DNA of 25,250 nucleotides, from contig JAPDPT010000054.1 of assembly GCA_034506315.1 (NCBI GenBank), positions 1 to 25,250 of the forward strand, in the 5' to 3' direction. The translations under genes and the position numbers were made by a program. Of this stretch, positions 3,147 through 19,868 are shown in pieces (position 1 is the stretch's first letter; the number at the start of each line of letters is the position of its first letter). The DNA is from Candidatus Zhuqueibacterota bacterium (lineage in GTDB: Bacteria; Zhuqueibacterota; Zhuqueibacteria; Oleimicrobiales; Geothermoviventaceae). Below the pieces are notes generated by a model, which did not search any database, was not told the origin of the DNA, and saw nothing but the letters and a program-made list of their open reading frames with translations.

Positions 3147-5192
3147 TCACGGCCCTTCGTACCAGCCAGGTAGAGATACCGTCGCCTGATAGTTCGAGTA
3201 GTTGTACAGAGGATTCCTTACCGGTCGGTACAGCCTTCCGGACCGGGGGTTATCGTCCTGCGTGTACACCCAGAGATCGTAGGGATCCCAGACGACGATT
3301 TCGTCTCGGCAATCGCCAGTGATGTCCAGCACGGCATTACACATCTCAGGGTGACCGTCGTCCGGAAAAACGACCACCCTGCGTCCCCAGCCGTCGAACA
3401 TCCCTCCGTGCTCCGTACTCGCCGAGAGCAAGAAGTACTCCTCGCCGTCGCCTTTCCAATTTACAGGCAGGCACATGCTTCCGTGTTGAACCGGCTCGAA
3501 CTCGCAATACACATTTCCGTTTGCGTCGTAGAGATGTACGATGCCCTGATTGCCCCAGAAGTTGATGCTCACGGTTTCCAGCCCCGGAAGATCCGGTCGG
3601 AAGTTAGCGACGGCCGGGTTCTGCACATGGCCCAGCCGATGGTGCCTCAGGATTTGGCCGTCGAGGCTGAGGAACAGCATCCCTTCGTCGCTGGCGGCAT
3701 TGAGAACGACAGGACTCAAGTCCTCTCGGAGGCGCACAATGGCCACGCCATCGGCATGGTCGTGCAAGATCGGATCGAGGATCCACATCACCGAGCCGTC
3801 GTGGTCCAACAGGCTATATCCGATGGCGACTTCGTCCCGGCCGTCATTGTCAATGTCCGCAGCATAGGGGTAATGTCCGGTATTGCACGCGTGGTGCCAA
3901 AGAACCTCCAGGCGATCGTTCAGTGCCCAGACGTTCCAGTATCGGTCCTTGATCAGAATGTCTCTCGGGTGCCCCGTGCCGCGCAGATCACAGAAGAAGA
4001 GACAGTCTCCGAGGATGCGCGGGAAACGTGCTCCTGGATCTGGAGAGAGTGGTGTTGGGGCGCGCAGCTTTGGGCGCCCGGTCCTACCATCCGCCACCAC
4101 GATCTCCGAGTTCATGCAGTAGACGACCTCGTTCTGTCCATCCGCATCGAGGTCGTGGATCTGGAACGCGACGTCGTTGGTCAGGTGATCCTTCCAGGGA
4201 TCGGGTTCGCCAATCTGCCACAAGATGCGGCCGTCAAAGGTCATAGCCGTCAAGCAGCTCAGCTCGCTGTAGCGGTCCTTCGGTCCGTGGTGGACGACCT
4301 GTCCGATGAGCAAATCCGTTTGCCCGTCACCGTCGAGATCGCCGAAGCGGAGATTTCTCCCCACGCCCAGGCCGTCGATCTGCAGTTTGCGCCACACAAT
4401 GGGGCGCGGGTTGACGGCCCGGAGGCGTTGTTCCTGGCGCAGGAGTTCGGCCCGGCGTCTGAGGTAAGCCCGTCGGGCGACGTAATTCATGGTTACCTTT
4501 ACGCGCTCATAGCGGGCGGGCACGTCGGCGAGCAGACCTACTCGACCGTGGGTGTAGGTCGTATCCTCTGCTTCCAGGGTCAGCTTCCGATTGAAGCGGG
4601 CGCGGATGCGCGAACCCTGGAGCTTGACCTCAGCCTCCAGCCGGTCTCCGGGTTTCCAATCAATGGTGCCCGAAGCGAGGATTCGTTCGGCAGGCCTGTG
4701 GAAACCGACCTCGTGCCGGACGACCTTCAGGTGCGCGATCGATCCATCCACTCCGAAGAAATAGTAACAGCGATCATTCTGGTAGCGGAACACAACCCCG
4801 CAGAGTCCGGTGTCCGACAACGGGCTAAAGGTGACGCGAAGGATGTAGTTCTGCCAGAGCGTGTCGCCCGAGACGAGGATGGGATGGGTATAGGTCCGGT
4901 GATTCGTGTGGGTCTGGACCAGCACCTTGCCCCCGCCTTCCTTGCCGATAACGCGCCAGGCCCTCTGAGAAGCGGTCTCTGGGGTAAATGTCGAGACTTC
5001 CCATCCGTGAACGGGGGCCGCCTCGCGGAAATAATGGTACTCGAGGTGCGCGCCAAGCGGGGGCAGTAGCGGACCACTTGGAAACTCCGCAAAATCTTCG
5101 TCGATCAGCACTTCTTGTCGTGTCGGCGCGCACGCAGTGAGAGCCAGAATGGTGAAGAGCAAGATTCCTTGTCCTTGGCCCCTTCGGAACAT
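3147..5192 (-). CDS. Secreted lipoprotein with FG-GAP/VCBS-like beta-propeller repeats and an N-terminal beta-sandwich region (681 aa); possible glycan-active or adhesion protein
   Basis: I placed the start at ATG 5192, which has GGGAGG 7 nt upstream. This gives MFRRGQGQGILLFTILALTAC, a signal peptide with an LTAC lipobox. There are at least five repeats of the DxDxDG-x-D/E-hydrophobic-G type (FGDLDGDGQTDLLIG, HDLDADGQNEVVY, DIDNDGRDEVAIG, DITGDCRDEIVVWD, CDLRGTGHPRDILI), typical of FG-GAP propellers. The ORF-track start at 5393 would add 67 residues ahead of the signal peptide. Confidence 0.7.
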   Translation of the reverse strand: MFRRGQGQGILLFTILALTACAPTRQEVLIDEDFAEFPSGPLLPPLGAHLEYHYFREAAPVHGWEVSTFTPETASQRAWRVIGKEGGGKVLVQTHTNHRTYTHPILVSGDTLWQNYILRVTFSPLSDTGLCGVVFRYQNDRCYYFFGVDGSIAHLKVVRHEVGFHRPAERILASGTIDWKPGDRLEAEVKLQGSRIRARFNRKLTLEAEDTTYTHGRVGLLADVPARYERVKVTMNYVARRAYLRRRAELLRQEQRLRAVNPRPIVWRKLQIDGLGVGRNLRFGDLDGDGQTDLLIGQVVHHGPKDRYSELSCLTAMTFDGRILWQIGEPDPWKDHLTNDVAFQIHDLDADGQNEVVYCMNSEIVVADGRTGRPKLRAPTPLSPDPGARFPRILGDCLFFCDLRGTGHPRDILIKDRYWNVWALNDRLEVLWHHACNTGHYPYAADIDNDGRDEVAIGYSLLDHDGSVMWILDPILHDHADGVAIVRLREDLSPVVLNAASDEGMLFLSLDGQILRHHRLGHVQNPAVANFRPDLPGLETVSINFWGNQGIVHLYDANGNVYCEFEPVQHGSMCLPVNWKGDGEEYFLLSASTEHGGMFDGWGRRVVVFPDDGHPEMCNAVLDITGDCRDEIVVWDPYDLWVYTQDDNPRSGRLYRPVRNPLYNYSNYQATVSLPGWYEGP

Positions 5193-5425
5193 GGATGCCT
5201 CCCCTTCGTGCCCGATGATCCCGCTGCGCGAGCGAAATTGCAGAGCCCCCGCCAATTCCCAAAGCGAATTTTCCCGTAAGGGGAAGTTCCCATTTCCATG
5301 GCCGAGGCCTTTCAGTGCTGTTTCGGGGGATAGCGGTACGCGCAGCAGTGGGGCAGGTCCTTGAAGACCCCGTTGCCTACGACCTGGGATCACGGAGCGG
5401 GGGTAGGAGCAAGCGGGAAAACGGC

Positions 5426-5646: not shown

Positions 5647-6636
5647 ATGATGTGGTGGTCTATCATTGCCATACTTGCCGCGGTCGGGGTCGGATTCGCA
5701 GCCCTGGAGCTGCGTTTTCGTCGCCCCGATCAGCTGGTTCTCTACGACGCACATGGGGAGGTGCGTGCGCGGACGGGCCGGTTCTACCCCCGCCACCTCA
5801 GCCTCTGCTTGCCGTACCGGGTCCAAACCATCGTCACGGAGGTGGAGGCCGAGGCCAAGGGCCGGTTGGGCCTCCGCGTTCAGGTGACAGCCACGGCCGG
5901 ACCTGACCCAAAGAACCTCGCACAACTCGTGCGGGTTGGTGGGTGGAGCCGCGAAGCCGTCGAGCGTGCCTGCAAGGAGTTGGAGCTCGTCATGCACTCG
6001 CTGGTTCGCTCCTACACCGAACAGAAAGCGCTCGAAGAGATCCGTACAGATGAAATGATGCAGTGGCTGCGCTCGGGTCTGGAGCAGGAGGCCCCCAAGT
6101 TGGGCCTGGAGATCGTATCGGCCAGTGTGCAGTCCATTGAGCCTCGGGATCGGGAAATTGCCGAAGTGATCCAGCAACGAGAGGCTGCTCGAATCCGCAA
6201 GCAGACCGAGATTGTGAATCAGCAAGCCCGGGTGGCGGCCATGCAGGCCAAGCTGGAAGCAGACGAGCGAATCGCCCGGTCAGAGCACGAGCTGCAGCTC
6301 GTCAAGCTGGCGCTGCGAAAGGAGGAGGAGCTTCGAGAGGCGGAGCTGGCGCGCTTCCGGCTCGAGCAAGATCTCGAACAGCGACGGGCGCAGCTGGCCC
6401 TTGACCAGCAGGAAATCGAGCTCCTCGCCCGTAACCCTGAAGTGCTCCTCTTGACCCCCCAGCTGGCGCGTCTGGCCGAGGCCAGCCAGGGACTACGGAA
6501 TGCCCGGACCATTGTTTCGCTTTCGCCGAACAGCCTGCCAGAGGATTCGCCCCTGGCAAAGAACGTCGTCCGCCTCCTGGAGCGCCTCCTGAGCCGTGCG
6601 GCGGCCAGCGGCGGTCAGGAATCCCAGCAGACGTGA
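5647..6636 (+). CDS. SPFH/band-7 family membrane protein (flotillin/prohibitin-like), 329 aa
   Basis: ATG(ATG) at 5647 is preceded by GGTGGAGGAG. There is an N-terminal TM helix (WWSIIAILAAVGVGFAALEL). The SPFH core follows, and then a long Glu/Ala/Arg/Leu-rich coiled-coil (QQREAARIRKQTE...EEELREAELARFRLEQDLEQRRAQL), which is typical of flotillin-like proteins. Confidence 0.85.
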   Translation: MMWWSIIAILAAVGVGFAALELRFRRPDQLVLYDAHGEVRARTGRFYPRHLSLCLPYRVQTIVTEVEAEAKGRLGLRVQVTATAGPDPKNLAQLVRVGGWSREAVERACKELELVMHSLVRSYTEQKALEEIRTDEMMQWLRSGLEQEAPKLGLEIVSASVQSIEPRDREIAEVIQQREAARIRKQTEIVNQQARVAAMQAKLEADERIARSEHELQLVKLALRKEEELREAELARFRLEQDLEQRRAQLALDQQEIELLARNPEVLLLTPQLARLAEASQGLRNARTIVSLSPNSLPEDSPLAKNVVRLLERLLSRAAASGGQESQQT

Positions 6637-6667: not shown

Positions 6668-9600
6668 GTGCGCGCGGTGCAGGACCCATTCCGACTCAAG
6701 CCCGTAGAGACTGCCGAGGTCTCCGAGATCAGCGAGCTCACGGCGAGCGCTCAGGTGCGCCGTGAGGACCGCGTCAACTTCCACATCGGGAACCCTGTGC
6801 AGGACCCCCGCCTCTTGTCGATGTACCAGAGGTTAATCCTCGGACTTGCACCCGATAACGGCGCGACGGATCCCAGGGAGTGGATTGAGGAACACGTGGA
6901 AAGCCGGCACCAGGCGGAGCGAGTCCACTGGTTCTTGGGCCTGGTCGAAAAAAGCGTCGCCTACCTGCCGCGCGGTGGGTTCGGACGCAGGGATCCCGGC
7001 TCAGTGGCGCGCAAGGTCCACGCCCTCTTTACGTCCGAAGCGGAGGAGCCGCTGGACTACGACCTCGGCGACAAATCGGGAAAGCGAGAGATCACTTTTG
7101 TCAGTGGGGGAAAGCGGGAAGCCGTCCGGCTGCTTCATTATGCCCTCTCTCGTCAGCTCGAGGTGGCTTCCTTTGCCACGCTGCTCTTCGGCTTCCCCCT
7201 CCCACAAATCCTGCGAGCGTCAGCCCGCGGAGACATAATTCCGTTGCCCGATCAGGAGGGGGATGTCTTACGACTTCTTCGTGAGCGACTCCGCTCGTTT
7301 CCGGACCAACCCCATTTTCTCCTCCTGGGTAGGGTCCCGACGGAAGGCCTGCGGCGAGCCATCCGCAGAGCCTGCCTGGAAGGATCCCTCTTTGTAGTGG
7401 AAGCCAACGGGGCTGCCAATCACCTCTCCCTCGCTCGCGAGGCGGGACTGGCTAATCGTGTGCTCCGCATCCTGGACGCGGCGGATCTGCGCGCAGACCT
7501 GCAGGGACTTGCGGTGGCCGTGGTGCTGGGGCGCGCCGACTACATTGACGCCATCGAAAAAGCCCATTTCGAGCTCAAGGGCACACCCGCGGCTCCGGAG
7601 CTCGAGTTTCTTGGCTACCTGCTGAACCAACCCCTCGACACCAGCGCTTCGGCAACACCCGTGGATGGCTTCGATCTCTCTGCCGCCGTGCCCGAAGGTC
7701 CCCGCTCTTCGTACGAAGGGTTGCGGGGTACAATGGCCCGTGTCCCTTCTGCGGCCACCAGGGTGGCACGACACGTAGAGGAAGTGATCGAGAGACTGCC
7801 AGCCTCCTGTACCTCCGCGCTGCGCGCCAGGCACTGGACCGTGCGGGCCCCCGTAGCCATAGGTGAGCTCCACGTGTCGTTTCCCTCCGCAAGTGTGACG
7901 GACGCCTTCCCCGCGCTGCAACCGACGGAGATTATCGAGCAGCTCTTTACGCGCTACGCCGATCCCTTATGGCGCGCCCAGGTCGTCGAATCGTTCCTGA
8001 GCGCCTTTCTTCAACTCCACCCCGAATATGAACCGGAGGCATGCGCCGTTGTGGGCGGATCGGCGCGGACGGCTCTCGCCCTGCTGGGTCGCTACTGCGG
8101 CCTTGAGGAGGCCATCGTTCCCGACCTGAGCTGGACCTATCATCACTGCTTTCCGCGGGTGACGGCAGTCCCCCTGACCGCCGATTTCCAGCTGGACGTG
8201 GAGGGCATTCTGCGGGAGGTAGATGGGCGACTGGAAGCCGATCGTTCCTGGGCGGAACGCGGGGCGGTGGTGATCAACTCGCCGCACAACGCCTCGGGGC
8301 AAATCTTCCATCAGGGTGACCTTGTCCGCCTGCTCCGTGAACTGCTGGGTCGGGGGGTATGGGTTGTGGACGATCTATCGTACAAGGGGGTGGCGCCTCA
8401 GCCAGGCTTTGTGCGGACCTACTCGTTGCGGGAAATCGCCACTGCGATGGTGCGGCAGGGAGAGCTCCGCCGGGAACACCTGCGCAAGCTGATCACAGTC
8501 CATTCGCTTTCCAAGACGGACTGCTTTGCCGGCGGCCGCCTGGCAGTGGTAGAAATCCTCGACCCGGCCCTCCGATCGCGATTTCGCCGTCTCCTTCAGG
8601 ACATCGCCCCGAACCTGGTTTCCTGCCTCCTGGCATATCTTTTCTACCGCAACGGTGAGAGAATACGGGCATTTTGGGAGCTGCGCAACCGGGTCCTATG
8701 GGAAAGACTGGAAGCGTTGGATCTTGCGTGCGCGGAGGTCCCCGCCGAGCGCAATCCATATAGCGCCAAGCTGGTGCGACCCACCGGGTCGATGTATCCG
8801 CGATTGGAAATCGAAAGACTCCCCGAAGGTGTATCGCTGGTGCGCCTTGCGACGGGCCTGGCAGTACGGGGAATTGGGTTGGTTCCGTTGTCTGCTTTTG
8901 CGCGAACCGCCTCGGGCTGGGAACTGGCCCGCCGGTCGTTCCGGCTCACTCTGGGTGGCGACGACCCTGCGCCCGTCCTGGCCCGGAAGATCCGGCGCGT
9001 CCTGATCGATCTGAATCGGCTAATTGCCCAGGAGGCAGAAGGCTTTCGGAGAAGAACCCTGCCACGAGCGCGTGCGGAGGAGGGCCTCGGTGAGTACAGC
9101 CGCTCGTGGGCAAACCAGTGGGCGGCTCTGAAGGACGAGCTGGAAAGCCGGTCGCGACGGTGGCTGCGCGAGTTTGCGCGCCAACTTCCTGGTACCGATG
9201 AAACCGCTGAAGACGCCTTCGTAGCAGAGTACCTTCCGGAACGCCTCGCCTGGATTCGCCAGCGCCTTGTGGACCGCGCGCGACTTGCGGACGAGATTCT
9301 GTGGCTTGCGCAATCCGACCGGGACGGACTTCTGCGTGGCTTCGCTCACGAGATCCGCTTTCCCGAGCTCGACGCGCGACGCGCGCAATTCCGCTCCCGC
9401 CTCTTTGACCGCACCGTGCACCCCACCCAGATGTACGCGCTGGAGGTGGAGCGGCTCACCAATCGCCTTGTGGATGAGCTGCGAAGGAAAGGTAAGGTCA
9501 GCCAGGAGACCCTGGAGAAGCTGGCCGCCAGCCTGGCTGCCGAGCACCTCGGCCTGAATGTGGCGATTCGCTCCGCCGAGGAGTCCTGGGAGCTTGTGGT

Positions 9601-12289
9601 GGACCTCGACGCGCTGGCCGAGGCGGAACAGGCCGCCCTATTCTGGCACGGAGTGGATCTACCCCTGGTACTCTCGTACTGGGGGGACTGGGACGGAAGC
9701 ACACGTCCGTCAGGGCAAGGGCATCGGTTGGTTGCGGGCGCCCTCCTGGAGAACGTGAGTCGGCTGCGAAGGCTGGTCAAACGTCTGCGCTCCCTCGGAG
9801 TACCGCTGGACCTTCCCGCAGAGCTGGAAGCCGAGTTACAAGGGCTTGAGCGCAAGAACCGGGAGTTTTGGAAGCTCCTCGACGAGATCACCAAGCTTAC
9901 CTCCCAGCTGGAGCAGCGCTACCGGAGTGTGCTGCCCATTGGGAGCCGGACCAGCCCCTGGCGACGGCTCGGAATGCGGCTGGGAGTAGCCAAGGACCCG
10001 ATGACCGTTCTGTGGCTCCACAACGACCGCCTCGAGAAGCGGATGTTGCGGCTGCGAGCGCGTCGGCGGGAAAGCCTGAAAACGTACTTCGAGCTCAATG
10101 AGGAGCTTCACCGCACCCTGCAGAAGCAGCTGGAGCGGATCCGGGAGCATCTTGACCAGCGGCCTGTGGCTGAGGAGATCGGTCACTACCGCAGCCTGCT
10201 CCGGAGATTCTTCCTGACCCCGCGCATTCACCAGCGGATGGTCCTGGCGGTCGACCAGTTCGCCGTGGACACCACGGTGCACAACATGGTTGAGATCAAC
10301 GCTCTGGCCGGAGCACACGGGTTCCCGGGTCTGGTCCTTGCGCTGCAAGTGAGCATGTCCACGGATCCTGAAGCGGTGATCGCTCTGGACCGGAAGCTGC
10401 GCGCCAAGTCGGAGGAATTGCTGCGCCGCCACGGAAAGCTCCCACTCCCCAGCATCTGGATTATCCCCCTTTTTGAGGACCTGGAGACCGTCCGCCAGCT
10501 GGAGGGTTACCTCGACCGTCTGTGGGAGTACGCGGTGCAGAGTCGAAGGCTCGGTCAAAGCCCGGCCGACAGGTTCGCCGAGCTCACGTGTGAGCTTTTT
10601 GTGGCCGGATCGGACCTGAGCCAGCAGGTGAGTCAGCCTGCGGGGTACGCCCTCTACCGCGAAGCCAAGTATCGCGCCATCCGCTGGTTTGCGGAGAAAG
10701 AGCTCGTGGGCCGCGTCCGAATCAAGCTGGGCAGCGGAGAGCCTGCGCAGCGGCAGGGCGGTTATTTCGATCCGACCGTAGGGCAGCCCGTGGCAAGGAC
10801 TGAAGGCCAGGCCTACGCCCTGCTTTCCCGCAACTTCAACGAGGTGGAACGCCAGATGCTCCGCCGGGCGACCGAACCTCTACGAGGCGCCATGGCAGGG
10901 GGGGAGTTCCGGACGTTCCAGAGCAATCTCTTCGAGCGTTTGCGTCTGGCCAGTGCTGAGGAAAGAGCCCAGTTCTTCTTTCACGTCCTCAGCAGTCAGA
11001 GGCAATACGAGGGGGAGCTCCAGCGTGCAGCGTCGTCCCTTGTGGAGACGCGGTTTCTCCACCGGGAGCGCGGCCTGCAGGAGTTGGAGGCGCTTACGCT
11101 CGGCCGGAGGGACGAACATCTTCGCCGGTTCCTGGAGGAGCTACCGCAGCACTTCCGCCAGATCCTCTACGGCAGCGAAGAGGATATCATTGGGCTGCAC
11201 GTCATCTCGTACTTCGTTTCGCGGACCATGCCCCCGCTGCGGGACCGGCCTGTGGTCCGTCCCGGGAGAGAGCCATTAGGTGGCCGCGGGCGCGAGATCG
11301 TCGGTCGCATTGCTGAGACGTTGCCCCTCGCCAAGCACGGAAGCCTGTTGCGGGCGATTGGCCACAACCGTGCCCAGACCATGATCCTTGGGGTGAACCA
11401 GCTCACTACGGGCCTGTTCCGCTGCCTCAAAGCCTTCATTGAGAGCTTCGACAACCCGGCGGAGGGGTGGCGGGTGGTCGAGGACAGCATCCTACCCCAC
11501 CTTCCCGTTTACGACATCCTGCACACCCTCCGCCTCTACCATGATCTGGATCTCGAGTACGTCCGGAGGCTCGAAGGCGTCTTCCCCCCGGGCAATTCGG
11601 CCCTGCTGGCCCTGCGCGAGGACAACGATGCCATCCGGGAGTTCATTCCTTCGTTTCAGCGGGAACTGCTGCGGCGCTGCGGTCTGGAAAGCGAGGGCTT
11701 TTTCACGGATGGCCACGTCCGTCGGGATCTGCTCCCCTTGCTTAGGCCTGAGCTGGTGGTCCTCCTTCAGCCAGATCTCTTTAACACGGATTATAACCGA
11801 TTGGTGGACCGGCTCGGCGAGGTCGTGGACAGCGACTGGGGTAGGGAGGTAGGCCGGCTCCTCGAGAAGAGGGACAAAGTACGGATGTGGCGCGCCCGTA
11901 TCTGGGACATCATTGAGGGGCCAGTGCGCTCGCAAGTGGAGAGTTTCGTCCAGTTGGCCCAGGCGGTCAATCGACTCACCGCGGGCGGCAGTGTCTGGGA
12001 TTCGCCGTTTGCCGCCAATCCCGGTGAGGTTCTGAGGCTCGGGGCCCAGGTGGCGAGTCTGTTGCGCGGAGCTGCCGACGACATGATGCGGCAGTTCCTC
12101 ATCGCCGCGGTGCAGTACCTGACGCAGCTTCCGCAAGGGGCCGCAGGTGTACCCATCGAGGTGATCCGGGCGCTGCGCAATGTCGAACGCATTGTGATGA
12201 TCGAGGAGCAGGCGCTCAACGAGAAGCAGCTGGCTTTGGTTCGCTTCTGCACTTTGCAGATTGCACGGCTGTGCGGGGAGAACGGCTGA
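6668..12289 (+). CDS. Giant 1873-aa multidomain protein. It has a degenerate aminotransferase-like domain, then an intact class I/II (AspAT-like) PLP aminotransferase domain, then a divergent phosphoenolpyruvate carboxylase (PEPC)-like domain.
   Basis: A single uninterrupted frame of 5622 nt with very high GC3. The GTG start at 6668 has GAGGGGA upstream. Aminotransferase motifs are listed under the sub-features. PEPC motifs occur in the canonical order and spacing and are also listed under the sub-features. Stop is TGA at 12287-12289. Confidence 0.85.
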   Translation: MRAVQDPFRLKPVETAEVSEISELTASAQVRREDRVNFHIGNPVQDPRLLSMYQRLILGLAPDNGATDPREWIEEHVESRHQAERVHWFLGLVEKSVAYLPRGGFGRRDPGSVARKVHALFTSEAEEPLDYDLGDKSGKREITFVSGGKREAVRLLHYALSRQLEVASFATLLFGFPLPQILRASARGDIIPLPDQEGDVLRLLRERLRSFPDQPHFLLLGRVPTEGLRRAIRRACLEGSLFVVEANGAANHLSLAREAGLANRVLRILDAADLRADLQGLAVAVVLGRADYIDAIEKAHFELKGTPAAPELEFLGYLLNQPLDTSASATPVDGFDLSAAVPEGPRSSYEGLRGTMARVPSAATRVARHVEEVIERLPASCTSALRARHWTVRAPVAIGELHVSFPSASVTDAFPALQPTEIIEQLFTRYADPLWRAQVVESFLSAFLQLHPEYEPEACAVVGGSARTALALLGRYCGLEEAIVPDLSWTYHHCFPRVTAVPLTADFQLDVEGILREVDGRLEADRSWAERGAVVINSPHNASGQIFHQGDLVRLLRELLGRGVWVVDDLSYKGVAPQPGFVRTYSLREIATAMVRQGELRREHLRKLITVHSLSKTDCFAGGRLAVVEILDPALRSRFRRLLQDIAPNLVSCLLAYLFYRNGERIRAFWELRNRVLWERLEALDLACAEVPAERNPYSAKLVRPTGSMYPRLEIERLPEGVSLVRLATGLAVRGIGLVPLSAFARTASGWELARRSFRLTLGGDDPAPVLARKIRRVLIDLNRLIAQEAEGFRRRTLPRARAEEGLGEYSRSWANQWAALKDELESRSRRWLREFARQLPGTDETAEDAFVAEYLPERLAWIRQRLVDRARLADEILWLAQSDRDGLLRGFAHEIRFPELDARRAQFRSRLFDRTVHPTQMYALEVERLTNRLVDELRRKGKVSQETLEKLAASLAAEHLGLNVAIRSAEESWELVVDLDALAEAEQAALFWHGVDLPLVLSYWGDWDGSTRPSGQGHRLVAGALLENVSRLRRLVKRLRSLGVPLDLPAELEAELQGLERKNREFWKLLDEITKLTSQLEQRYRSVLPIGSRTSPWRRLGMRLGVAKDPMTVLWLHNDRLEKRMLRLRARRRESLKTYFELNEELHRTLQKQLERIREHLDQRPVAEEIGHYRSLLRRFFLTPRIHQRMVLAVDQFAVDTTVHNMVEINALAGAHGFPGLVLALQVSMSTDPEAVIALDRKLRAKSEELLRRHGKLPLPSIWIIPLFEDLETVRQLEGYLDRLWEYAVQSRRLGQSPADRFAELTCELFVAGSDLSQQVSQPAGYALYREAKYRAIRWFAEKELVGRVRIKLGSGEPAQRQGGYFDPTVGQPVARTEGQAYALLSRNFNEVERQMLRRATEPLRGAMAGGEFRTFQSNLFERLRLASAEERAQFFFHVLSSQRQYEGELQRAASSLVETRFLHRERGLQELEALTLGRRDEHLRRFLEELPQHFRQILYGSEEDIIGLHVISYFVSRTMPPLRDRPVVRPGREPLGGRGREIVGRIAETLPLAKHGSLLRAIGHNRAQTMILGVNQLTTGLFRCLKAFIESFDNPAEGWRVVEDSILPHLPVYDILHTLRLYHDLDLEYVRRLEGVFPPGNSALLALREDNDAIREFIPSFQRELLRRCGLESEGFFTDGHVRRDLLPLLRPELVVLLQPDLFNTDYNRLVDRLGEVVDSDWGREVGRLLEKRDKVRMWRARIWDIIEGPVRSQVESFVQLAQAVNRLTAGGSVWDSPFAANPGEVLRLGAQVASLLRGAADDMMRQFLIAAVQYLTQLPQGAAGVPIEVIRALRNVERIVMIEEQALNEKQLALVRFCTLQIARLCGENG
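6758..7700 (+). other. Domain: degenerate N-terminal aminotransferase-like copy (about aa 30-340) lacking the Schiff-base lysine
   Basis: It has the N-terminal NFHIGNPVQDP motif (like INLGIGxP) and the ITFVSGGKREAVRLLHYAL motif (like the VTNGaqEAL small-domain start). At the position that my by-eye alignment equates with the SxSK lysine, the sequence is LRILDAADLRADLQGLAVAVV, so Lys is replaced by Ala (codons 7472-7486). The NPTG-like Asn and the DEVY-like Asp are not recognisable. Confidence 0.45.
7950..9070 (+). other. Domain: intact fold-type I (class I/II) PLP-dependent aminotransferase (about aa 430-800)
   Basis: The motifs match the canonical aminotransferase class I/II order: AVVGGSARTALALLGRY, EEAIVPDLSWTYHHCF, VVINSPHNASGQIF (8275-8300, NPTG-like Asn), VVDDLSYKG (8364-8390, cofactor-binding Asp), TVHSLSKTDCFAGGRLAVVE (Lys codon 8513-8515), and a C-terminal ARRSFRLTLGG Arg that should bind the substrate carboxylate. 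Confidence 0.7.
9070..12289 (+). other. Domain: divergent phosphoenolpyruvate carboxylase-like region (about aa 800-1873)
   Basis: By-eye collinearity with E. coli-type PEPC landmarks. VLTAHPTE corresponds to RTVHPTQ (His codon 9419-9421). LLKEAGI...PLFETLDDL...IDWYRG corresponds to LLRRHGKL...IPLFEDLETV...LDRLWEY (10462-10492). MIGYSDSAKDAG...ASWAQYQAQ corresponds to FVAGSDLSQQVSQPAGYALYREAKYRA (10598-10660). LFHGRGGSIGRGGAP corresponds to KLGSGEPAQRQGGYFDP (10722-10775). LRAIPWIFAWTQNR corresponds to LRAIGHNRAQTMILGVNQLTTG (11346-11415). The C-terminal ...MRNTG corresponds to ...CGENG. Confidence 0.6.
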
Positions 12290-12315
12290 ACTGCGCTTCG
12301 CGGGGCGGAATTCGT

Positions 12316-12380
12316 GGGGTGTGCCACGCTCAAACCCCGAGGCGGGGGCGGCGGGTACTCGCGTAGCTAACGCACACCCC
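12316..12380 (+). terminator. Stable branched stem-loop downstream of the giant ORF. A 9-bp perfect inverted repeat (GGGGTGTGC ... GCACACCCC) encloses smaller GC hairpins. No U-tract.
   Basis: The arms are at 12316-12324 and 12372-12380. The inner hairpin CCCCG-AGG-CGGGG is at ~12335-12347. The element begins 27 nt after the stop at 12289. Confidence 0.3.
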
Positions 12381-12599
12381 TCGCACGCCTCTCCGAAATC
12401 CCTGCGGAAGATTCTACCTACGTCATCGGTCTATCTGGGACCGGAGAACTCGCTATTGGAACTCCCCCCGGTGCGTTGTACCTTACGGAGGAGGGGTAGA
12501 AGATCGGATGCTGCGCGGACGGAGCTGCGCGAGAGATTCGAGCTCGCACGCGCTAACGAGAGCGAACCTGGAAGATTCGAGGGAACACAGAGGAAGCCA

Positions 12600-13283
12600 G
12601 TGCGGACGATTCTGTTCGACATTGACGGGACCCTCCTGTTCTCTGGAGGTGCAGGAAGAAGGGCGATGACCCTGGCCTTCCGCGATGTGTACGGCCTGGA
12701 AGACGGGTTCGCCGGGATCTCGATGTCGGGTAAGACCGACGCTCAGATCCTCCGGGAAGCCCTGCTCAGAGCGGGATTGCCCCTCGAGGAGCGCTCCGCT
12801 GCCCTTTTCCGCCAGCGATACTTCGAGCACCTCCGGTCCACAATGAACGACCAGGCCCCGGGGAAACGGCTTGTTCCGGGCGTGAACCAGCTCCTTGAGG
12901 CTCTCAGGGTGCGCGGGGGCGTCTTGCTGGGACTTTTGACCGGGAACTGGAGGGAAAGCGCCTACATTAAGCTGAGGCGATTCGGGATCGACCATTTCTT
13001 CCCCTTCGGCGCCTTCGCAGACGATTCTGAAGATCGCAATGCGCTCCTGCCTGTTGCCATCAGGCGTGCGGAAAGTCTCGCCAGGCGTCAGTTGGAGGCA
13101 GCGGACGTCTGGATCGTCGGAGACACACCGAGAGACGTCGAATGCGGAAGTGTTCACGGTGTGAAGGTGTTGGGCGTGGCATCGGGCGAGTACGGGCCCG
13201 AGGTGCTTGCCGCGGCTGGCGCTACTGCAGTGGTAAGAGATTTTAGGGACGTGCAGGCTGTCCTGGGGATTCTGCTGGCCTGA
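12600..13283 (+). CDS. HAD-superfamily hydrolase (phosphoglycolate phosphatase / beta-phosphoglucomutase-like subfamily)
   Basis: I chose GTG 12600 (VRTILFDIDGTLLFSGG) as the start because HAD enzymes begin at the DxDGT nucleophile motif. AGGAAG lies just upstream with a short spacer. Motif II (LLTGNWRES), motif III Lys and the motif IV VWIVGDTPRDVECG are present. The ORF-track start at 12261 gives a low-complexity N-extension that overlaps the giant ORF, and I rejected it. Confidence 0.65.
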   Translation: MRTILFDIDGTLLFSGGAGRRAMTLAFRDVYGLEDGFAGISMSGKTDAQILREALLRAGLPLEERSAALFRQRYFEHLRSTMNDQAPGKRLVPGVNQLLEALRVRGGVLLGLLTGNWRESAYIKLRRFGIDHFFPFGAFADDSEDRNALLPVAIRRAESLARRQLEAADVWIVGDTPRDVECGSVHGVKVLGVASGEYGPEVLAAAGATAVVRDFRDVQAVLGILLA

Positions 13284-17443: not shown

Positions 17444-18337
17444 TTACTTGGCTGCGACAAGCCGAATGGTTGACTGGGTGGCCGTCTCAATGGGCATGGT
17501 CATTTCGGTCTGGCCCGCTACGGCCACGGTACCCTCCGTCTCGGCGGTCGCCTCGAGGTACACAAGCTGGCCCAGAGCGGGGTCGAAGTACCATTCGGAC
17601 GTGAGCGTTCCCTCCGCCTCGAAGGCGATCGTAGCGCCGGTGCTTGGCTCCTGCCCCGAGCCGTCCATCTCCAGTTTGCCTTGCTTTTGACCGAAGTAGC
17701 AGTCGCGCCCCTCGAAGGGACGCCGATCCACGAGCTTGTTCGTGCTTTGGCTGATTACCTTGACGTCCATTCCGCTGCGCTTTACGGTGGTGGTGTCCGT
17801 CTCACTCCAGGTATCCCCGGGAACCGCGGGCCGGCCGGATAACCGCAAGAAGACGCTACGCAGGTTGTCCTCCATATCCACGGTGCCCATTCGGCCTAAG
17901 CTGAGCTCCAGGCGCTGTCCAGCCTCCGGCTTTTCCAAGAGTCGCCCGTCCCTACCGATGCGCATGCCCACGTGCTTGCCAACCAGCTCTGTGACGTCGG
18001 GAGTGATCTCCCCCATGGGCGACTTGATCTGGACGAAAAGGGAATCGATGCAGAAATCGATAAGGGCTGACCCGTCTTTGTACACCTGCTGGGTCGTGAC
18101 GGTGAGACGCAGGCGCGAGGTCGTCTCGCTCTGGAAGCTCTGCCCCATGGTCTCGATGGCTTGCTTAGAGCGGCTCTCAACGGCGTAGGTGAGGACCCTT
18201 CCCTTGTGCCAACGATAAGAGAGTTCGTTCCTCGTGGCGGCTGGTTTTTGGCCCGCACACCCACCCACCAGAAGCATTGCCGTCAGCGAGGCTACCAAGC
18301 CTCGACCGACACCCGATGGACACGGTATCCGCTTCAT
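17444..18337 (-). CDS. Hypothetical lipoprotein (297 aa), probably co-transcribed downstream of mgtE
   Basis: ATG 18337 has GAGGAGGAG upstream. MKRIPCPSGVGRGLVASLTAMLLVGGCAGQ is a signal peptide with a cysteine lipobox. The mature part is a Thr/Ser/Glu-rich soluble domain. No recognisable catalytic motif. Confidence 0.6.
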   Translation of the reverse strand: MKRIPCPSGVGRGLVASLTAMLLVGGCAGQKPAATRNELSYRWHKGRVLTYAVESRSKQAIETMGQSFQSETTSRLRLTVTTQQVYKDGSALIDFCIDSLFVQIKSPMGEITPDVTELVGKHVGMRIGRDGRLLEKPEAGQRLELSLGRMGTVDMEDNLRSVFLRLSGRPAVPGDTWSETDTTTVKRSGMDVKVISQSTNKLVDRRPFEGRDCYFGQKQGKLEMDGSGQEPSTGATIAFEAEGTLTSEWYFDPALGQLVYLEATAETEGTVAVAGQTEMTMPIETATQSTIRLVAAK

Positions 18338-18395
18338 TTTGCTCCTCCTCGGATGGACGTTCGACGATGCGCCTCGGGTCCCCCATGCAACGCGC

Positions 18396-19769
18396 TCAAC
18401 GCAGCATGAAGCTTGCGATGCCCAGATAGATCGCAGTCCCAACGATGTCGGCAAGGGTGGTTACGAGGGGTGTACTGGCTGTGGCCGGATCCTTCTTGAG
18501 CTTGGAGAAGATGAAGGGGAGCAGTACGCCGATCAAACTGCCGACGATCACGTTGATGATCATGGTCAGCACTACGACCAGGGCCACATGGGCGCTTCCG
18601 CCCCGAAAGATGCCCATGAAAGAGATTCCCAATCCCATCGTCAGCCCGAGAGCCCCGGCCACGAAAAGCTCTCTTCCGAGCAGGTAAATCCAGTCCCGCA
18701 TCTCCACCGTACCGAGGGCCATGGCTCGAATGACGAGGGTTGCCGACTGCGAGCCGGCGTTCCCGGCGGTGTCGACCAGGACCGGCAGAAATGTCACCAG
18801 CACGACGTAGCGGGCGATGGTGCTCTCGAAGCCCTGAATGATGCCCCCGGTCACCATATCCATTACGAGGAGCAGGAAAAGCCAGGTGATCCGGCTTCGG
18901 TACAGCTTGGTGAGGGGAACTTCCTTGATCTTCGTGATGAAGTCGAGATCTACAGGCGGGGCTTCGATGGCGGACAGCTTTGTGAAATCCTCCGTCTGTT
19001 CCTCTTGGAGAACGTCTACCATGTCGTCGACCGTCACAATGCCGAGGAGCTTCCCCTTACTGTCGGTCACGGGAAGGCAGATGAGGTCGTATTTCTCCAT
19101 CAGCCGCACGGCCTCTTCTTGGTCCGCTTCCGCCACGATGGACACCACGCTGTGGTCCATAATGGCTTCCACGCGCTCTTCGGGGTGGGCCAGAATGAAG
19201 CGCCGGATGGGTATGTCGTCCAGCAGGAAACCGTTATCGTCGACCACGTAGATGACGTCGATGGTCTCGGCGTCGCGCCCGTTCCGCCGGATGTGCTCAA
19301 GAGCCTGGCCGATGGTCCAGGAGGGCTTCACGGCGACGTAGTCAGGCGTGAGAAGTCTTCCGACGCTGTTCTCGGGAAAGGCGAGGAGCTCGAGGGCTTC
19401 TTTGCGATCTTCCGGGGTGAGGACTTGCAGGATGCGGTGGGCCAGCTCTTCCGGCAGCTCCTCGAGCAACTCCGTCCGGTCGTCCGGCTTGATCTCCGAG
19501 AGGAAGGCCTTGGCCTCCGCGTCCGACAGGCGTTCCAGAAGGGTCTGCTGGAGCCCGACGTCCAGCTTGGCGAAGGCCTCCGACTGAAGCTCCGGAGGCA
19601 AGAGGCGGAAAAGGGTCAGTGCGTCTTCCAGTTCAATCTCGGTCAGCAGGTCAGCGATATCGATCGGCTCCCAAGACGAGACGACATCCGTCAGAGTGTC
19701 CCAGTCCCGTTTGCGGATCGCTTCCTTGATCTCTGGCATCAGCAGCTTGACAACCGGGTTCCATTCCAT
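18396..19769 (-). CDS. mgtE: Magnesium transporter MgtE (N-domain, tandem CBS domains, 5-TM channel domain)
   Basis: ATG 19769 has GAGGAAGAGGG upstream. It has the typical MgtE N-terminus (PEIKEAIRKRDWDTLTDVV...IDIADLL), CBS pairs and a C-terminal TM domain ending in the conserved region TAIYLGIASFMLR. Confidence 0.9.
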   Translation of the reverse strand: MEWNPVVKLLMPEIKEAIRKRDWDTLTDVVSSWEPIDIADLLTEIELEDALTLFRLLPPELQSEAFAKLDVGLQQTLLERLSDAEAKAFLSEIKPDDRTELLEELPEELAHRILQVLTPEDRKEALELLAFPENSVGRLLTPDYVAVKPSWTIGQALEHIRRNGRDAETIDVIYVVDDNGFLLDDIPIRRFILAHPEERVEAIMDHSVVSIVAEADQEEAVRLMEKYDLICLPVTDSKGKLLGIVTVDDMVDVLQEEQTEDFTKLSAIEAPPVDLDFITKIKEVPLTKLYRSRITWLFLLLVMDMVTGGIIQGFESTIARYVVLVTFLPVLVDTAGNAGSQSATLVIRAMALGTVEMRDWIYLLGRELFVAGALGLTMGLGISFMGIFRGGSAHVALVVVLTMIINVIVGSLIGVLLPFIFSKLKKDPATASTPLVTTLADIVGTAIYLGIASFMLR

Positions 19770-19868
19770 GCCCTCTTCCTCAAACTGCGCTTGGAGGTGG
19801 ACGCCTGACCCCTACACTTGCCCACAATTCCTGGAGTTGTCTTTGGCTGCCATTCCGCCAGTCCAACC

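Follow-up and report, generated by a model that had tools for sequence, protein, structure and literature searches.

A conserved bacterial protein with a Lys-less and an intact aminotransferase fold in tandem, followed by a phosphoenolpyruvate-carboxylase-fold module

Fold-type-I pyridoxal 5'-phosphate (PLP) enzymes are, to our knowledge, textbook symmetric homodimers, glycine decarboxylase being the one well-known exception. In fold-type-I dimers, a Tyr of the partner subunit completes each active site (Tyr70 in the numbering of aspartate aminotransferase, AspAT), and in kynurenine aminotransferase structures the x-N-T-P-x-Q loop lines the substrate pocket of the partner. Here we describe a long gene in a 25,250-nucleotide stretch of DNA from a Candidatus Zhuqueibacterota bacterium (assembly GCA_034506315.1, contig JAPDPT010000054.1, positions 1 to 25,250 of the forward strand; hereafter the window). 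Its product carries two aminotransferase-fold segments in tandem, the first Lys-less and the second intact, followed by a third module with the fold of phosphoenolpyruvate carboxylase (PEPC). A first-pass annotation of the window, made from the letters alone, had noticed the tandem pair and interpreted it as a duplication in which one protomer became a structural pseudo-subunit of a covalent dimer with a single active site. Our analysis confirms the observation and supports part of the interpretation.

The closest precedent is the single-chain form of the glycine decarboxylase P-protein (GLDC/GcvP), in which the N-terminal fold-type-I half is Lys-less and the C-terminal half is catalytic; in the two-gene form, the counterparts of these halves are separate alpha and beta subunits (PMC7259800). 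GLDC and the window protein have in common tandem fold-type-I domains with the Lys in the second only. Unlike the window protein, GLDC belongs to a decarboxylase family rather than to the class-I aminotransferases, and no sequence relationship between the two was detected. The GLDC halves are 26% identical to each other, whereas BLASTP produced no alignment of the two halves of the window protein (best E 0.09, over 20 residues). GLDC also lacks the PEPC-like domain that the window protein has, and its pseudo-dimer packing has been solved, whereas we only infer that of the window protein. Ordinary class-I aminotransferases (PF00155; E. coli YbdL, 1u08; P. horikoshii ArAT, 1dju; Thermus AspAT; kynurenine and prephenate aminotransferases) share their full motif set with the second copy and their fold with the first. 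They are homodimers of a ~400-residue chain with two equivalent active sites, whereas the window protein has a dead and a live copy per chain; relative to them, the cross-subunit Tyr loop is missing from the live copy, and the dead copy is without the C-terminal portion of its small domain. A review of PEPCs distinguishes four types, all of them stand-alone proteins of 55–110 kDa and none a fusion of this kind (PMC8100219). A literature search for a PEPC–aminotransferase fusion found no description of such a protein. The architecture is a variation on known kinds, notable mostly for a PEPC-like fusion that had gone unrecognised and for two aminotransferase copies that have degenerated in a cleanly complementary way.

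Two aminotransferase-fold modules on one chain

The gene is a single open reading frame (ORF) on the forward strand (6668..12289, stop codon included) that starts with GTG and encodes 1873 residues. The product on deposit is MDZ7374484.1, from a metagenome-assembled genome of a candidate division, which public annotation calls an aminotransferase and nothing more. More than 120 homologs of ~1840–1900 residues align with it end to end at 43–74% identity; judged by name, their sources include Ignavibacteria/Melioribacteraceae, Aminicenantes and Bryobacterales, and they span several phyla. Module boundaries and conservation counts were taken from a MAFFT alignment of 120 sequences, across which three modules are conserved. 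The N module (aa 1–~320; 6668..7627, forward strand, as are all features of the gene given below) is a Lys-less, shortened class-I aminotransferase fold, the AT module (aa 405–800; 7880..9067) has the make-up of a complete class-I aminotransferase, and the C module (aa 851–1873; 9218..12286) has the PEPC fold with altered signature motifs. Linker 1 between the N and AT modules (aa 321–404; 7628..7879) comprises ~85 variable and gappy residues, with a mean column identity of 0.15–0.38, gaps of 20–42% and a predicted local distance difference test (pLDDT) score below 50 from aa 327, and is probably disordered; linker 2 (aa ~800–850) is short and likewise variable. Two structures were predicted, each of a separate module. 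Together, these data show one conserved chain that combines tandem dead and live aminotransferase folds with a PEPC-fold module. The flagged region of the first-pass annotation (6758–9070) lies within this ORF; the pair of copies that it described is real, but it stopped at aa ~800 and missed the PEPC-fold remainder of ~1020 residues. The motif positions that it gave are exact for HSLSKTD, the K616 codon, LRILDAADLRAD and VNFHIGNPVQDP, and the translated ORF also contains NSPHNASG and VVDDLSY.

The AT module matches Pfam Aminotran_1_2 (PF00155) over aa 446–687 with 43.8 bits (cut-off 19.7), or 47.4 bits (2e-12) when scanned alone, and the Pfam and NCBIfam matches are limited to families of the class-I/II aminotransferase type. 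A 13-sequence AT profile retrieves solved class-I enzymes from the PDB (3b46, 1dju, 1gd9 and 1u08), and its motifs NnPHNASG, viDDLSY and HSLSKTDcfaGaRL align to NSPCNPTG, VISDEVY and NGFSKTFAMTGWRL of 1dju. By hhalign, the AT family profile matches E. coli YbdL with a probability of 94% (E 1e-7, 311 columns) and E. coli AspC with E 9e-5; these alignments begin at the 'FPDF'-type motif, reach the C-terminal Arg and pair all of the catalytic motifs. The HSLSKTD motif (8501–8521) contains the Schiff-base lysine Lys616 (S-L-S-K, 8513..8515), paired with GFSKT of 1dju, SYSKN of AspC and SFGKT of YbdL. The cofactor-binding residues Asn541 (HNASG) and Asp569 and Tyr572 (DDLSY; 8288..8383) are paired with HNPTG and FDFAY of AspC, and the alpha-carboxylate-binding Arg759 (F-R-L-T-L-G-G, 8942..8944) with SGRVNVAG of AspC and IRLCFA of YbdL. 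Lys616, Asn541, Asp569, Tyr572, Arg624 and Arg759 are each found in 120 of 120 homologs and pair with residues of both AspC and YbdL, so that the residues for O3' (Asn), the pyridine N (Asp) and the phosphate (Arg), together with the Tyr and the C-terminal Arg, are all in place. Judged from sequence, the AT module is a complete class-I aminotransferase, which agrees with the earlier description of the second copy as retaining every catalytic hallmark.

For the N module, the predicted structure shows a strongly diverged class-I aminotransferase fold with a seven-stranded large domain. The module comprises an N-terminal segment and this entire large domain, and ends after helix 309–319, so that the C-terminal small-domain part with its carboxylate-binding Arg is absent; the earlier statement that the first copy keeps nothing but the N-terminal arm and motifs of the small domain is therefore wrong. 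The highly conserved N-terminal segment (aa 8–46; 6689..6805) contains the class-I 'xNFHIGxPxxD' (GxP) motif and aligns to INLSQGFPDFD of YbdL, with F8, S19, E20, S22, E23, T25, N37–G41, P43 and D46 invariant; the GxP-type motif VNFHIGNPVQDP is located where the flagged region begins. The Schiff-base Lys, the Asn of NPxNPTG, the Tyr of D-x-x-Y and the phosphate-binding Arg are all missing. In hhalign alignments of the N against the AT module, the 'NSPHN' Asn segment is deleted, and G147–G148 and the acidic E245 at the end of strand E alone remain.

The stretch after strand F, where the PLP-binding Lys would be expected (aa 270–276; 7475..7495, within LRILDAADLRAD at 7463–7498), has Lys in 0 of 120 homologs, which bears out the reported absence of a Schiff-base Lys from the first copy. 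The family consensus here is T-P-x-x-x-S-P, with D-A-A-D-L-R-A in the window protein. The position matching K616 is Ala276 by hhalign and Asp273 by strand register, three residues past strand F (265–270). An Ala had been placed there by eye: hhalign approximates that register, the strand register does not give an Ala, and the coordinates originally assigned correspond to Ala271/272; all of these candidates fall within a single non-conserved, Lys-free stretch. The sole invariant Lys of the N module is K304 (120 of 120), and it was rejected as a displaced Schiff-base Lys: strand G and one more helix precede it, and at ~30 residues beyond the canonical site it falls in a loop equivalent to x-N-T-P-x-Q. 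Because the Schiff-base Lys, the Asn, Tyr and Arg residues and the small-domain part are lost, the N module cannot act as a transaminase.

Two loops that would serve a partner subunit are conserved in this module. In the Y99-L-P-R-G-G-F loop (6962..6982), Y99, P101, G103 and G104 are each present in 119 of 119 homologs; the loop precedes the helix ahead of strand A, shares the Y-x-P-x-x-G pattern with YAPMTG of YbdL (compare YLGIDG of AspC), and is a candidate for the cross-subunit Tyr of the AspAT Tyr70 type. The F-x-L-K304-G-T-P loop (7568..7588), in which G305 is also invariant, was matched to the topologically equivalent class-I x-N-T-P-x-Q loop by motif comparison with SVNTPAQ of YbdL, and may line the substrate pocket of the partner. 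On the AT module, the YbdL Tyr loop NQYAPMTG falls opposite a 7-residue gap (hhalign), and the candidate Tyr columns hold I, L, V or a gap (Tyr430 in the window protein only) or Phe; no cross-subunit Tyr loop of the form Y-x-P/G-x-x-G is found on it. Each copy would thus lack what the other keeps, so that one composite site appears complete and the reciprocal site dead on both counts, because the N module has no Lys and the AT module no Tyr loop.

Two further motifs of the N module are invariant. V-E245-x-N-x-A-P-N-H-L-S-L-A-R257-E-A (aa 244–259; 7397..7444) forms the strand E–F loop, with E245, N251, S254, R257 and E258 each in 120 of 120 homologs, and S-E-x-x-R-R-x-x-R (aa 226–233; 7343–7366) is an invariant charged motif. 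Both are confined to proteins carrying the PEPC-like module. They could be an interface with this module, or a regulator of it.

Relatives with the N and AT modules alone are rare, and two complete genes encode them: P0239 (650 aa; locus L008, 452–2404) and P0374 (652 aa; locus L010, 1884–3842). They have the same dead-plus-live arrangement as the window protein but end where its AT module ends; they lack the PEPC-like module, and no SPFH gene lies beside them. Their AT modules are 40% identical to that of the window protein, and their N–AT linker is short (~25–30 residues). FHIGxP, YLPxGG, GGxxE and FxLKG[ST] (the K304 loop, as FQLKGS) are kept, and the other invariant N-module motifs, SExxRR and E245–A259 included, are absent. 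On sequence grounds, the first set tracks the N–AT partnership, and the SExxRR and E245–A259 set tracks the C module. Both genes directly follow tyrA, which encodes a prephenate dehydrogenase with an ACT domain, and are followed by a two-component system in convergent orientation; this setting suggests a role of this subfamily in tyrosine or aromatic amino-acid biosynthesis.

A C-terminal module with the phosphoenolpyruvate carboxylase fold

The predicted C module has the PEPC fold, a beta-barrel within a large helical shell, and its alignment with E. coli Ppc is collinear over ~660 columns. The motif T-V-H918-P-T-Q (9413..9430), invariant in the family, corresponds to TAHPTE of PEPC and is paired with it in one of two alignments. 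P-L-F-E1270 (IPLFED, against APLFET) and A-G-S-D1316-L-S-Q-Q (against GYSDSAKD; 10466..10627 for both) are invariant and paired in both alignments. The PEPC glycine-rich loop FHGRGGSIGRGGA (GRGGSIGRGGA) has an altered counterpart in K-L-G-S-G-E-P-x-Q-R1362-Q-G-G (10724..10762), in which G1355, G1357, E1358, Q1361, R1362, Q1363, G1364 and G1365 are invariant. Further pairings with E. coli Ppc are FWGDWDGS with SWMGGDRDGN, QVSMS with VISMA, RDRPxVRP with GSRPAKRRP and, in altered form, RTFQS with VTEQGE. The invariant H918, E1270, D1316 and R1362 pair with H138, E506, D543 and R587 of Ppc (alignments with P 0.06 and 0.014, the His in one only). We take their counterparts in E. coli and maize PEPC to be catalytic or metal-binding residues (a catalytic His, the metal-binding Glu and Asp, and the second Arg of the glycine-rich loop).

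The protein ends in an invariant Glu-Asn-Gly (aa 1871–1873; window 12284–12286). In canonical PEPCs the last three residues are Asn-Thr-Gly, of which the Asn (Asn964 in Flaveria) belongs to the inhibitor site for aspartate and malate (PMC3586729). The aspartate feedback site may be retained in the C module.

A candidate pseudo-heterodimer and its alternatives

The best explanation of the whole, which we consider reasonably probable, unites the three-module architecture, an N:AT pseudo-dimer and a reaction path from phosphoenolpyruvate (PEP) through oxaloacetate to aspartate. The N and AT modules would associate as protomers do in an ordinary fold-type-I dimer, but the resulting pseudo-heterodimer would have a single composite active site where such a dimer has two. 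The AT module would supply Lys616, Asp569, Asn541, Tyr572, Arg624 and Arg759, and the N module the elements of a partner: the Tyr99 loop, directed to the PLP phosphate, the N-terminal arm and, probably for the substrate pocket, the Leu-Lys304-Gly-Thr-Pro loop. The variable ~85-residue linker would let the modules pair within a chain. The first ~50 residues are the best-conserved part of the N module, yet they have low pLDDT in the isolated-module model, as expected if the arm packs on a partner.

Directly upstream of the long gene and on the same strand lies a gene for an SPFH/Band-7 protein (5647..6636, forward strand; 329 aa; Pfam Band_7, 1.2e-8) with an N-terminal transmembrane helix and a coiled coil. 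The same arrangement is found in three distant homolog loci (L001 4997–5983, L002 4977–5966 and L003 4834–5817), and the SPFH proteins of the window and L001 are 46% identical. We infer a function more weakly than the pairing: the C module would convert PEP and bicarbonate into oxaloacetate and the aminotransferase would convert oxaloacetate into aspartate, the whole being a fused enzyme that works with a conserved SPFH membrane-scaffold partner. In C4 plants the reactions follow the same order, oxaloacetate from PEPC being transaminated to aspartate (PMC3586729). A bolder proposal, which we hold as a tentative and rather doubtful one, is that the family is a fifth, hitherto unrecognised kind of PEPC. 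A divergent barrel fused to a covalently linked, single-site pseudo-heterodimeric aminotransferase would turn PEP and bicarbonate into aspartate on a single polypeptide, with the unstable oxaloacetate channelled from one site to the other; the enzyme would act inside or on a cage or membrane microdomain that the conserved SPFH partner builds. The Lys-less copy would then be both a surrogate protomer, through the Tyr99 and Lys304 loops, and a coupling or regulatory interface, through its E245–R257 surface.

Several observations weigh against these proposals. Profile–profile comparison aligns the N with the AT module collinearly but weakly (P 0.014 and 0.009), and against YbdL and AspC the hhalign result for the N module is not significant, with a register that drifts past the N-terminal motif and is useless for placing Tyr99. 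The duplication invoked at first is undetectable as sequence similarity between the halves. The assignments of Y99 to the Tyr70 type and of K304 to the partner-pocket loop come from motif pattern and secondary-structure order, not from superposition, and the proposed packing of N on AT has indirect support, from motifs lost in one copy and kept in the other. An AT:AT' pairing between chains is sterically conceivable, PEPCs being tetramers (PMC8100219). A pseudo-subunit role leaves unexplained the invariant charged set E151, R154, E226, R229, R230, R233, E245, N247, N251, S254, R257, E258 and R267, and the two-module loci are so closely related that they amount essentially to one lineage, a thin sample. 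For the C module, the comparison with E. coli Ppc is not significant (P 0.06), or reaches 0.014 with a PEPC profile that is shallow, since the Ppc homologs listed for it are all at least 81% identical. Unlike archaeal-type (3odm) and bacterial/plant-type (3zge, E. coli Ppc) PEPCs, the C module was recognised by neither PEPcase (PF00311) nor PEPcase_2 (PF14010) at E up to 10 in 11 members, and searches of the PDB with the single sequence and with the profile gave no PEPC match. It also differs from PEPCs in being a ~1020-residue module fused behind two aminotransferase-fold modules, with the loop GRGGSIGRGG altered to GSGEPxQRQGG, TEQGE altered to TFQS, and Ser at the position of R581, the first Arg of the loop. 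The C module may be no carboxylase.

The alternative that survives best, though we regard it as unlikely, is a conventional AT:AT' homodimer between chains with two active sites per dimer. The N module would then be a regulatory or scaffolding pseudoenzyme domain rather than a surrogate protomer, and might bind an effector (for example an amino acid) or provide a docking site for the SPFH partner or the PEPC-like module. This alternative would accommodate the many invariant N-module residues that are unrelated to PLP chemistry (E245–A259, SExxRR) and present only together with the PEPC-like module. PEPCs are also oligomers regulated by aspartate (PMC8100219; PMC3586729), and fused non-catalytic enzyme-fold domains that mediate allostery are known, such as the PTA domain of malic enzyme (PMC8100219). 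However, an AT:AT' dimer needs a cross-subunit Tyr, and the AT module has no conserved one, whereas the N module keeps an invariant one. The two-module relatives, moreover, keep the N module with no PEPC module to regulate, and what they conserve is exactly the Tyr and LKG loops. Nor does the N module occur alone or attached to other proteins among the 1.84 billion representatives searched.

A domain-swapped pseudo-heterodimer, which we think quite improbable, would leave the chemistry unchanged, with the N module of one chain pairing with the AT module of another and linking chains into the oligomer that the PEPC-like modules form. All the evidence for N:AT complementarity fits it equally well, the ~25–30-residue linker of the two-module relatives may be short for intramolecular pairing, and PEPC-fold domains form dimers of dimers (PMC8100219). 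The long, variable linker of the main family is, by contrast, typical of tethers that permit intramolecular pairing, and the GLDC precedent is intramolecular (PMC7259800). The evidence at hand fits intramolecular and domain-swapped pairing alike. That the N module is an unrelated alpha/beta or helical domain with motif likeness by chance is effectively refuted and hardly credible, although it draws on the lack of significant matches: none by BLASTP, none at E up to 10 in Pfam, none in Pfam, NCBIfam or the PDB with the single sequence and an 18-sequence profile, and, in the exhaustive profile search for bridges to ordinary aminotransferases, only the same family and its fragments.

If the N:AT pseudo-heterodimer with one composite site is correct, it would be a second, independent asymmetric case among fold-type-I enzymes, and one within the aminotransferase family itself, in which one protomer has turned into a non-catalytic partner that still donates cross-subunit active-site loops. 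It would show a route from obligate homodimers to asymmetric single-site enzymes, and an origin of pseudoenzyme domains. The label 'aminotransferase' on these ~1870-residue proteins hides ~1300 residues, comprising the dead copy and a PEPC-fold module that escapes every sequence model. Should the PEPC-like module be active, an anaplerotic, CO2-fixing route to aspartate would be missing from the reconstructed metabolism of organisms such as Ignavibacteria, Aminicenantes and Bryobacterales, and a new type of enzyme would join the PEP–pyruvate–oxaloacetate node. A further lead is that the gene is strictly paired with one for an SPFH scaffold protein.

Genomic neighbourhood and interrupted homologs

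Nothing obvious connects the conserved pairing with the SPFH gene to the chemistry of aminotransferases or of PEPC. On the other side, an ORF for a HAD-family hydrolase (12261–13283, forward strand) shares 29 nt with the 3' end of the long gene. It was considered as a conserved partner and rejected, because it is not found beside the homologs in L001–L003, and it is probably unrelated to the long gene; as a phosphatase adjoining what would be a PEP-using enzyme, it is noted nonetheless. Near the SPFH gene lies an FG-GAP/rhamnogalacturonan-lyase-11-like protein (3147–5393, reverse strand). An FG-GAP protein also occurs in the Bryobacterales locus L002 (2646–4862, opposite strand), and this co-occurrence may be coincidental.

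Two shorter homologs, P0130 (834 aa) and P0375 (807 aa), were considered as natural proteins with the N and AT modules and rejected, since overlapping same-strand ORFs follow them, for a total of ~1880 aa, which marks them as interrupted full-length genes. The contigs concerned are metagenomic: at L007 (3001–8505) the long gene was called as overlapping same-strand ORFs of 834, 440 and 607 aa, and at L009 (5001–10619) as ORFs of 807, 163 and 920 aa. Rather than natural split genes, these are probably pseudogenes or products of frameshift errors in assembly. Elsewhere in the window, two long ORFs overlap on opposite strands (17444–18454, reverse; 18234–19808, forward) and have no Pfam match; at most one of them is likely to be a real gene.

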